In this document: positions 1,924-3,043 of the stretch, one piece after another
Numbering within the stretch: position 1 is the stretch's first letter
How the letters are laid out: every line of letters begins with the position of its first letter
Sequence record: PV340554
DNA from: Escherichia phage PhiR12_5
Strand: one strand, 5' to 3'
Length of the DNA stretch: 53,384 bases
Translations under genes and position numbers: made by a program
The notes under the pieces: generated by a model
What the model saw: the letters and a program-made list of their open reading frames with translations, nothing else
Databases searched by the model: none
Told to the model about the DNA's origin: nothing

Positions 1924-2265
1924 ATGAGAACAGTAGCGAGAAGATCGATACAGACGATTGAGCGTCGGACTCAACTCGTCAGTTCTTTTGTTGACTCAAA
2001 CACAGCAAACGAGTTCTTCGTGAGAAGACTGAGTGATCGAGTCTCCCCGGCACGTCAGCTGTTTATTGTGACATTGAACAATGAGGTTCGTGACGGTGAC
2101 GTGATCCCGTTTGCTGAGATCGCCATGAACAAAGAAAAATTGCGCTATGTTGTGAAGCCAGCAGATCAGTATCCTCAGTATGTAAGCAGTAATCTGCTGA
2201 AGAAAATTGAAGCGGCAATTGCTCTATACATGCAGAAGAACTACAGGGAAATTAACTACCATTAA
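1924..2265 (+). CDS. Hypothetical protein (cargo gene between attL and int)
   Basis: 113-aa ORF with GAGGAG RBS 7 nt upstream; no family recognised. Confidence 0.5.
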   Translation: MRTVARRSIQTIERRTQLVSSFVDSNTANEFFVRRLSDRVSPARQLFIVTLNNEVRDGDVIPFAEIAMNKEKLRYVVKPADQYPQYVSSNLLKKIEAAIALYMQKNYREINYH

Positions 2266-2276
2266 AAGGTTGCTGA

Positions 2277-2477
2277 ATGGCTCCTGCGTTAATACCTTCA
2301 TATAACAAGGACTTGAACATCACGCCATTTGGCGAAAAACGTCTTATTGAGTCATTCTATTTTTTCACTGCCGAGGCTGGCTTACTGAGGGCTGATGAGT
2401 ACATTGTCAGTTCTGGTGAGTTTCAGTACTACTTGGATGTGTATCAACTGGGATGTTCCACCGACGACTTTTTTTAG
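2277..2477 (+). CDS. Hypothetical protein; possibly the N-terminal part of a longer gene interrupted at a T7 tract
   Basis: 66-aa ORF ending in a run of seven T (2469..2475); one extra T would fuse it in frame with the downstream ORF. Confidence 0.35.
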   Translation: MAPALIPSYNKDLNITPFGEKRLIESFYFFTAEAGLLRADEYIVSSGEFQYYLDVYQLGCSTDDFF

Positions 2478-2512
2478 ACTATGGCAGTGACCTTCTTGAT
2501 TCGAAGGTTCCA

Positions 2513-3043
2513 ATGCAGGATCTGGTCAATACCCTCTTAGGTCTTGATATGGTAGACGATAACAAAACGATAAGAATAGGTCGTATACAGTTCAACGACT
2601 TTAATTTTATCGAAGAGAACGGTCAGATGATGACCGGAAAGCAAGTGAAAAGCGCTGTTATCGCACAGGATTTCCAATCAGCAGGTTTGGCGCGTGAGAT
2701 CTATAAAATGCTTGCGCGAAAGCATGAGTTTCTCATCTGCGATAACATTCAAAGTATTGCCGGTGGTGCTCTTTGGGCCAGTAGCATCATTCGAATTGCC
2801 GAGGTACGGATCTACAATTCACGCACGAAGAAATTTATGGACATACTTGGTCCAGGTGCGCGTGGTGTTTCAGGTACTTTGCCATGGAGTGCGAATGATC
2901 TGTCTGTAGATGAGATTGTTCGCTGGGGTCGTGCGTATGATGATGAAAACTGTTGTCGTCACATTGTACATGTTATCTGTAAGGACCGACTCATTGACGA
3001 GCAATTTCATGATTATGTTTCGATAGGTGGCGCGACAGAATAA
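2513..3043 (+). CDS. Hypothetical protein (cargo gene between attL and int)
   Basis: ORF 2453..3043; internal ATG at 2513 has GAAGGT RBS; no family recognised; followed by terminator. Confidence 0.45.
   Translation: MQDLVNTLLGLDMVDDNKTIRIGRIQFNDFNFIEENGQMMTGKQVKSAVIAQDFQSAGLAREIYKMLARKHEFLICDNIQSIAGGALWASSIIRIAEVRIYNSRTKKFMDILGPGARGVSGTLPWSANDLSVDEIVRWGRAYDDENCCRHIVHVICKDRLIDEQFHDYVSIGGATE

Follow-up and report, generated by a model that had tools for sequence, protein, structure and literature searches.

Among described systems, those closest to the locus considered here are the type II toxin-antitoxin modules of the GNAT/ribbon-helix-helix (RHH) kind and, as regards its frameshift, the slipped-strand phase-variable genes and the homopolymer pseudogenes. 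A GNAT is also found in AcrVA5, a phage or mobile-element enzyme that inactivates Cas12a by acetylation; it is a single small protein encoded in an anti-CRISPR locus together with an Aca regulator. As regards the way in which the locus is carried, it may be compared with the phage morons in the sense of Hendrix and Juhala, such as lambda bor and lom or HK97 gp15. The locus lies in Escherichia phage PhiR12_5 (sequence record PV340554), of which the whole stretch of 53,384 nucleotides (nt), hereafter the window, was analyzed. It comprises two genes on the plus strand, named here after their open reading frames (ORFs) ORF1 and ORF2, the second of which is split at a run of seven T (T7). Our account as a whole, to which we give a probability of about 0.7, is that of a mobile two-gene GNAT moron whose catalytic gene was knocked out by a recent slippage from eight T (T8) to seven, and not that of a designed switch.

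One gene split in two

As read from the window sequence, ORF1 (113 amino acids, aa) is followed, after a spacer of 11 nt that includes AAGG, by a second ORF of 66 aa whose 3' end reads GAC GAC TTT TTT TAG, the last T of the run being the first base of its stop codon. A third ORF (2453-3043, 196 aa) lies in the -1 frame relative to the second. A first-pass annotation, made from the letters alone, had pointed out that one additional T would fuse the second and third ORFs into a protein of about 255 aa, and its coordinates proved exact: with that T the sequence reads GAC GAC TTT TTT TTA GAC TAT GGC within one 255-aa ORF, the product of which is identical to WP_042199616 of E. coli NCTC9112. The fusion of the two ORFs is not a chance arrangement, because the restored protein covers phrog_3307 in its full span (residues 1-236 aligned with 1-240 of the 241 profile positions, E 1.4e-59).

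The length of the tract was then compared at orthologous loci. Megablast of window positions 1860-3100 against 5426 complete E. coli genomes matched 10 chromosomes, all at least 99.3% identical and all spanning 1242 nt versus 1241 nt in the query. A T8 tract and a single 768-nt RefSeq gene were present in all seven of the genomes read, the other three of the ten being known by their 1242-nt span, and an exact-flank pattern search found further T8 copies in 8 IMG/VR contigs and 3 metagenome contigs, so that T8 is documented in 21 independent records taken from complete genomes, IMG/VR and metagenome contigs. In NCTC9112, the closest genome, 5 substitutions and exactly one gap separate the two sequences over 4224 nt, and this gap is the T of the tract. 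The T8 protein aligns without interruption with 28 homologues of 46-79% identity (Enterobacter, Yersinia, Pantoea, Mixta, and others), and about 45 more distant homologue clusters are likewise single ORFs, of about 240 aa.

Since the T8 orthologues are single ORFs, phrog_3307 is matched over its full length and the homologue alignment is unbroken, the comparison indicates that the ancestral and usual condition is one 255-aa gene. Measured against every intact orthologue, the frameshift is genuine, and the window gene is therefore a disrupted copy, in line with the pseudogene reading of the first-pass annotation. The homologues, with their single ORF, are indeed the opposite of the two separate conserved ORFs that would speak for the split layout. 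The operon thus has two genes, not three: of the two to three ORFs described at first, two genes stand, and the third ORF is the displaced remainder of the second.

ORF2, a predicted GNAT-fold protein, and its partner

At the level of sequence families, the operon had been described as devoid of recognizable domains, and this holds. No Pfam family was found for ORF2 at E up to 10 and no significant NCBIfam family; PADLOC-DB v2 gave no match at E up to 1 for either ORF1 or ORF2; searches of PDB sequences with ORF2, as a single sequence and as a profile, found no match, and profiles for the pair were likewise empty. Searches with ORF1, with both ORF2 fragments and with the fused ORF2 gave only PHROG families without assigned function. 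At the level of the fold the description does not hold, since each of the two proteins resembles a GNAT. For the 255-aa ORF2 protein, an AlphaFold model obtained from 29 sequences shows the mixed alpha/beta fold that defines the GNAT superfamily, with a predicted local distance difference test score (pLDDT) of 77, a predicted template modelling score of 0.76, and a pLDDT mostly above 90 for residues 20-130. The closest structural counterparts of this model are N-terminal protein acetyltransferases (NatD, RimJ/RimL) and Rv0802c, with similarity also to AtaT and TacT, and Foldseek against a viral structure library returned weak matches only, to phage NAT_SF proteins. The family motif [Q/R]-x-[A/T]-G-L-[A/G], which in ORF2 is QSAGLA at residues 134-139 (G137 and L138 being invariant in the 29 sequences), is placed by the model at the junction of strand 118-129 and helix 138-149, the counterpart of the beta4-alpha3 junction at which GNAT motif A, Q/R-x-x-G-x-G/A, binds the pyrophosphate of coenzyme A (CoA). 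An extra N-terminal unit of three beta strands spans residues 21-57. A profile search of 1.84 billion representative proteins recovered only 56 clusters, the family being found in Enterobacterales phages, and its weakest matches (P0109, P0112, and P0117) carry Pfam Acetyltransf_1 over the matched stretch, which makes them the sole link, and an indirect one, between ORF2 and a curated GNAT sequence model. These models suggest that ORF2 has a GNAT acyl-CoA N-acyltransferase fold with a CoA-pyrophosphate motif and, as a prediction, the corresponding activity; its resemblance to N-terminal protein acetyltransferases hints at a protein target, which is only a lead.

In the model, the N-terminal three-strand unit precedes the frameshift, which coincides with the beginning of the first helix, and the 66-aa product is therefore without the core. 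A product restarted downstream, for example at Met80 (ATG at 2513, with AAGG upstream), would be without the first strand and helix and would probably be inactive.

The model of ORF1 is a partial, beta-sheet GNAT-like fold without a CoA motif. Its N-terminus is rich in arginine (MRTxARRSxQTI), and positions M1, A5, R7, S8, Q10, T11, I12, and H113 are invariant. No significant Pfam, NCBIfam or PADLOC family was found for ORF1, nor any RHH or DUF1778 signature, and a profile-profile comparison with ORF2 revealed no sequence relation, so that no duplication of part of ORF2 is detectable in ORF1. In the viral and genomic collections, ORF1 stands directly upstream of ORF2, with a gap of 11-36 nt, in all gathered loci with room for it. 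From this pairing we infer an interaction between the two proteins, in which ORF1 may be a non-catalytic subunit or an inhibitor of ORF2. It should be mentioned that ORF1 is called as 45 aa in some Yersinia contigs (L014 and L015, 7852-7989) and as 81 aa by RefSeq in some E. coli; tblastn found the full 112-113 codons intact in these loci, which points to differences in start calling and not to truncations.

Such a pair recalls a GNAT-type toxin-antitoxin system in the strict sense (TacAT, AtaRT, KacAT); aminoacyl-tRNA would then be the substrate acetylated by ORF2, and ORF1 would be the antitoxin, binding DNA and autoregulating the operon. This explanation is compatible with the frameshift reading: a small gene stands upstream in tight coupling with the GNAT gene, only ORF2 was ever found inactivated, and conserved palindromes in and after the promoter could be operators. 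However, in place of the RHH/DUF1778 signature and the ribbon-helix-helix of these antitoxins, ORF1 offers a beta-sheet, GNAT-like model, ORF2 exceeds these toxins by about 80 residues and is structurally closer to NatD, RimJ/RimL and Rv0802c, and PADLOC, Pfam and NCBIfam gave no match. We hence consider a toxin-antitoxin system of this type to be rather unlikely.

Distribution and history of the T7 allele

The T7 allele was found in three lineages and on two haplotypes, represented by the window with the other PhiR12 records and by two IMG/VR contigs. The separately deposited GenBank phage records PhiR12_1, PhiR12_2, PhiR12_2_star and PhiR12_4, whose hosts are MG1655 and E. coli C, match the window in this region with 100% identity and have the same split annotation, T7 being kept in four of four. 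The IMG/VR contig 3300029647_000118, also T7, is identical to window positions 1924-4931 and then diverges into a different early region. The other contig, 2778261504_000013, carries T7 on the other haplotype, which differs at window positions 2539, 2779, and 3001; its nearest relatives (L006 and L022) are T8, as is the nearest relative of the window haplotype (L001). Alleles with T6 or T9 were not found in the E. coli clade, either by exact-flank pattern search or in the genomes read.

Because T7 occurs in several records and on two haplotypes, the deletion is heritable, and because neither T7 allele carries a secondary lesion, it is recent. It either arose twice or was moved by recombination between haplotypes. 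The tract is the longest homopolymer within the surrounding 4.2 kb, and outside the E. coli clade it is broken or absent: relatives at 90-93% identity have TTTCTTTTT or TTTCTTTCT in its place, and more distant ones TTTTTTC, TTTTTAT or TTCTAT. Since the tracts of relatives are interrupted or shorter, the T run is a by-product of Phe-Phe-Leu codons in one clade. The best reading of these data is a recent, recurrent knockout by replication slippage at an incidental hotspot, that is, an ordinary loss-of-function allele. This reading is more likely than a switch, programmed frameshifting or a pair of real genes.

An ORF2 frameshifted elsewhere, around residues 80-97, was observed in Xenorhabdus indica (L067, 6001-6716), where ORF1 is intact. 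It amounts to a second inactivation, independent of the first, that hit the catalytic gene only.

A homopolymer error in sequencing or assembly, also named in the first-pass annotation, would mean that the true sequence is T8 and that the gene is intact in the source strain. It is indeed in the longest homopolymer that the sole indel relative to the closest relative over 4.2 kb falls, and the four PhiR12 records and the window may share study and platform, hence a systematic under-call. Yet T7 is also present in the two IMG/VR contigs, which come from other projects, one with a different phage backbone and one with a different haplotype, and other long homopolymers of the window lie inside long intact ORFs (A9 at 51238, T7 at 11513 and 48014, and A7 at 28442). 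Since T7 recurs in independent data sets, such an error is unlikely.

The same annotation had raised the possibility of a slipped-strand switch, in other words of a phase-variable contingency locus, on with T8 and off with T7, which could for example allow escape from a toxic or abortive-infection cost. The occurrence of T7 on two haplotypes, each with T8 in its nearest relatives, the position of the tract as the longest neighboring homopolymer, the lack of secondary lesions, and the independent inactivation of ORF2 in X. indica, ORF1 being never found inactivated, would all suit such a switch. Nevertheless, a contingency locus is expected to have a conserved tract of several lengths, whereas this one is not conserved beyond the E. 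coli clade, being T6 or shorter in the farther relatives, and comes in two lengths only, T8 in 21 independent records versus T7 in 3 lineages. The PhiR12 records, in two hosts, moreover remained T7, and in an enteric bacterium proficient in mismatch repair, a contingency tract of eight bases would be a short one. We therefore regard a switch as improbable.

Programmed recoding, through -1 ribosomal slippage on U UUU UAG or through slippage of RNA polymerase, would yield both the 66-aa and the full-length products, and a -1 slip in the P site on UUU before the stop, or one extra U, would restore the exact ancestral protein; it is nonetheless highly improbable, as the two-ORF layout is a minority allele and all other homologues are in frame, the canonical spacing of 5-9 nt downstream holds no stimulatory structure, the closest hairpin (ACCTTC/GAAGGT) begins at a distance of 14 nt downstream and occurs in T8 alleles just as well, and T7 is shorter than the lengths for which efficient slippage was reported (PMC1088944). 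Transcriptional slippage on A/T runs is documented: in many bacteria, selection against such runs can be seen from about 9 nt, and in one cited case about one-tenth of full-length product was obtained from a run of 8 A (PMC1088944). Slippage at T7 may at most be an adventitious, leaky rescue.

Promoter, structured leader and terminators

The two genes are preceded by a predicted sigma-70 promoter and by a leader with three hairpins, H1 to H3 (Table 1). In unrelated insertion contexts, the same position is occupied by TTGAAG, TTGATT, TTGCAG or TTGAAA, followed after 17 nt by TATCAT, TACACT, TACTAT or TAGTAT. A covariance model of the leader, built from 12 leaders and tested on 21 distinct sequences, recovered the element before ORF1 in 24 loci. 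Pairing was kept in 96% of cells, versus 29-56% with slid partners, 8 pairs being changed on both sides, and the covariation score was 0.27 versus 0.05-0.10 in slid controls. In the 21 leaders, the six pairs of H1 were paired in 97.6% of cells, with 2 pairs changed on both sides, and the fifteen pairs of H2 in 95%, with 4 double changes; H3 displayed compensatory changes from CG to UA and from UA to CG, in both directions. The folding z-score of the leader was -3.6, and no Rfam 15 family was found at E up to 10 in 1780-1923.

The hairpins with T runs that had been seen to bracket the operon are present on both sides (1847-1876 with T5, and 3055-3072). Upstream, H2 has a G+C-rich stem of 11 bp that lies 43 nt before the ORF1 start codon. 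Its stem base is found 43-51 nt before the ATG in most enteric loci checked, with inner stems CTGGAG/CTTCGG, CTGGG/CTTAG or CTAAG/CTTAG. It is missing from the group of loci L030, L047 and L053, from Photorhabdus and from Xenorhabdus, and the leader terminator is therefore not essential to the cassette. From its sequence, H2 may be an attenuator that limits cassette expression; alternatively, it could give rise to a short RNA of its own, or the palindromes (H1 and, within the promoter spacer, ATTACC-N5-GGTAAT) could serve as operators. Downstream, the terminator scan lists the minus-strand reading of 3049-3077, and the plus-strand reading was taken from the sequence.

Palindromes are conserved in this region, as ATTACC-N4/5-GGTAAT in the spacer and as RTAAC-N4-GTTAY (ACAAC-N4-GTTGT in some loci) just downstream, with equivalents in loci L012, L016, L048, and L065. 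In Photorhabdus, the second palindrome precedes the -35 hexamer, a placement more in keeping with a DNA operator than with an RNA hairpin.

Three further candidates were rejected. A promoter between H2 and ORF1 would have only 43 nt, which are occupied by H3 and the Shine-Dalgarno sequence and include no -10-like hexamer. An antiterminator pairing of the 5' arm of H1 with the loop and 3' arm of H2 (shared GTTATCA) is not conserved in other clades. As for lambda-style nut/boxB control of the leader terminator, the cassette also occurs in myophages without an N-type system.

Mobility of the cassette

The first-pass annotation had described the slot between the att site and the integrase gene as a site for accessory cargo, in agreement with what was found: relatives of the integrase are present in 108 of the 5426 complete E. 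coli genomes and the cassette in 10, the slot elsewhere holding a DUF4760 gene or nothing. As examples, the equivalents of window positions 1582-3084 contain the DUF4760 gene in O26:H11 11368 (L082, 2085-2993) and are empty in DX6 (L083, 3121-3484). At the att end, an Rfam match to transfer-messenger RNA (tmRNA) on the minus strand at 1554-1645 is weak (E 1.3e-4, below the gathering score), homology to other lysogens begins at 1553, and the PhiR12_1 phage record begins at window position 1565; a search of the window with ARAGORN yielded neither a tRNA nor a tmRNA gene, ssrA being present as a 3' remnant only. On the basis of these boundaries, this end is the attL side of a prophage inserted at ssrA and adjoining another ssrA island.

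The cassette is by no means restricted to this slot. E. coli, Atlantibacter and relatives carry it in the att-int interval, and it was also found between the genes for antiterminator Q and lysozyme, after the tape measure gene and before tail genes M and L, between the genes for the tail chaperone (DUF6246) and the tape measure protein, between the baseplate hub and spike genes of myophages, and beside P22-type antirepressors. In Photorhabdus, its neighbors are a CAT gene, tail-fibre genes or Hcp, and in one case it is duplicated in tandem: in Photorhabdus akhurstii (L062), two tandem ORF1-ORF2 pairs, 3967-5039 and 5633-6711, lie by an Hcp (type VI secretion system) gene, apparently outside the standard tail context. 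Because it occurs at eight or more different positions in siphophage and myophage genomes, the cassette is classed as a moron. Its G+C content is 0.41-0.46, versus about 0.50-0.53 for int. Window positions 1784-3077 would accordingly make up a self-contained two-gene moron, with a promoter activity of its own that is presumed from the sequence.

Table 1. Features of the cassette and of its immediate surroundings, in window coordinates
Feature	Position	Strand	Description
att core, 3'-end remnant of ssrA (tmRNA), attL side next to int	1554..1581	-	sequence TGGTGGAGCTGGCGGGAGTTGAACCCG
Predicted sigma-70 promoter TTGAAG-17 nt-TATCAT	1784..1812	+	consensus scan; spacer palindrome ATTACC-N5-GGTAAT, 1791-1807
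Hairpin/palindrome H1, GATAAC-TGCG-GTTATC	1821..1836	+	RNA fold; also compatible with a DNA operator
Predicted intrinsic terminator H2 in the leader	1843..1881	+	stem GCCACTGATGA 1847-1857 / TCATCAGTGGC 1866-1876, T5 1877-1881
Hairpin H3, CTTCACTG-6-CAGTGAAG	1886..1907	+	RNA fold; then Shine-Dalgarno GAGGAG, 1912-1917
ORF1, conserved partner protein, phrog_2594	1924..2265	+	partial GNAT-like fold (predicted); Arg-rich conserved N-terminus, invariant C-terminal His
ORF2, 5' part	2277..2477	+	codons 1-66 of the ancestral 255-aa gene (predicted GNAT fold); premature TAG at 2475-2477
T7 tract	2469..2475	+	one-base deletion from the ancestral T8 (TTT TTT TTA = Phe65 Phe66 Leu67)
ORF2, 3' part	2476..3043	+	codons 67-255, now in the -1 frame; inside open frame 2453-3043; predicted GNAT core and QSAGLA (ancestral residues 134-139)
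Predicted bidirectional intrinsic terminator, ORF2 / convergent int	3049..3077	.	A5, ACCCGGC-ATTT-GCCGGGT, T5-6; stem 3055-3061/3066-3072
Tyrosine integrase of the lambdoid prophage (context, outside the cassette)	3085..4263	-	Pfam Arm-DNA-bind_2 3e-21, Phage_integrase 2e-19

Proposed function

From a mechanistic point of view, the cassette may be transcribed in the lysogen from its own sigma-70 promoter, use of which is presumed here. The transcript would then traverse a structured leader of about 100 nt, the intrinsic terminator of which would let a fraction reach the genes. ORF2 would acylate a protein or an aminoacyl-tRNA target, as part of a lysogenic-conversion, conflict or toxin-like function, and ORF1 would work with ORF2 or control it. 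In the window lineage, slippage has dropped one T from an incidental T8, thereby placing TAG after residue 66 and turning the catalytic gene off. The analysis demonstrates the loss of this T, the unbroken ancestral gene, the two folds and the motif, the linkage of ORF1 with ORF2, the mobility of their cassette and the conservation of the leader hairpins; we infer promoter use, attenuation, the interaction of ORF1 with ORF2, catalytic activity and the biological role of the cassette.

Several points weigh against this account. The recurrence of T7 on two haplotypes is equally expected from a reversible switch, and a miscall of the homopolymer, unlikely as it is, retains a small probability. A truncated product from Met80, or low-level restoration of the frame, could leave residual activity. 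The GNAT assignment draws on predicted structures and one short motif, with no significant Pfam or PDB sequence match, and residues 159-167 of ORF2, near the expected catalytic region, have a pLDDT below 50. The alignment used for leader covariation was fitted to the model, and the leader terminator is missing in some clades. Finally, the biological role is a guess, since no defence or toxin-antitoxin family matches.

More tentatively, ORF1 and ORF2 might form an undescribed two-protein GNAT conflict module, acting in defence, superinfection exclusion or in a toxin-antitoxin-like manner, in which the small pseudo-GNAT partner would restrain or target the catalytic GNAT, expression would be throttled by the leader terminator, and the recurrent T8 to T7 change and the Xenorhabdus knockout would reflect the cost of an active enzyme. 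The literature yielded nothing relevant on the phage, on its RefSeq proteins, or on prophage GNAT moron defence.

Other features of the window

Some neighboring features may be of use to readers of this record. At the left end (1-1468), an insertion sequence (IS) element of the IS3 family, with OrfA at 779-1042 on the minus strand and running off the end, interrupts a P4-type integrase gene of which only the N-terminal part is left (1076-1468, minus strand); the latter belongs to a second ssrA-linked island in tandem with the prophage. A partial IsrM-like match was noted at 1486-1563. Next to cI, at about 11258-12283 on the minus strand and in the position of lambda rexAB, a 341-aa gene is annotated in PhiR12_1 as a 'T2SS GspM containing protein', and it may be another exclusion or defence cargo gene. 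Antiterminator Q is directly followed by a 1983-nt ORF (about 20720-22702), at the place where Stx phages have stx. Between tail genes L and K of the lambda-like tail operon, at about 40684-42696, a minus-strand gene pair and an antirepressor-like gene form another moron-type insertion, and an IS21-type istA/istB pair (about 49792-52094) is inserted in the tail-fibre region of the prophage.

Significance and comparison with known systems

The homopolymer frameshift that had been flagged is in itself routine, an inactivated accessory gene in a prophage, and its consequence for annotation is that one disrupted 255-aa gene should replace two small ORFs. It nevertheless led to a small and sharply delimited family of paired GNAT-like proteins without annotation in Pfam, in defence databases or in the literature. 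The cassette moves as a unit among very different temperate phages, of Escherichia, Yersinia, Pantoea, Photorhabdus, Xenorhabdus, and relatives, with a conserved structured leader, and it occupies recognized cargo hotspots (att-int, downstream of Q, and tail-gene junctions), a profile typical of conflict genes expressed in lysogeny. It represents an uncharacterized member of an enzyme superfamily that is itself known, and its setting is typical of accessory genes. As matched on (T8) and off (T7) alleles exist naturally and are near-isogenic, in NCTC9112 and the window respectively, the cassette is worth a modest follow-up.

Compared with the GNAT superfamily (NatD/Naa40, RimJ, RimL, and Rv0802c), ORF2 differs by the lack of a significant Pfam or PDB match, by its additional N-terminal three-strand beta unit, and in that it needs, or always travels with, a separate 113-aa GNAT-like partner. 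With the GNAT/RHH type II toxin-antitoxin modules (TacAT, AtaRT, ItaRT, and KacAT), the cassette shares two coupled genes, the small one first and the GNAT second, carriage on mobile elements, and the structural similarity of ORF2 to AtaT and TacT; it differs from them by a first protein that is not of the RHH/DUF1778 type and by a GNAT of 240-255 aa instead of about 160-180 aa. Likened by description only, AcrVA5 is also a mobile-element GNAT engaged in phage-host conflict, whereas the present cassette is a two-gene unit without a helix-turn-helix gene, in a slot likely to be expressed in lysogeny. As in slipped-strand phase-variable genes and in homopolymer pseudogenes, a one-base change in a homopolymer shifts the frame and recurs in independent lineages; unlike the tracts of phase-variable genes, this one is short, unconserved and of two lengths with T8 dominant, and it behaves as a mutational hotspot. 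The phage morons offer a further likeness: although an intrinsic terminator between promoter and first gene is outside their usual description, the cassette has, like them, its own promoter-like site and terminator, a G+C content lower than that of int, and insertion at many positions between genes that are adjacent in related phages.

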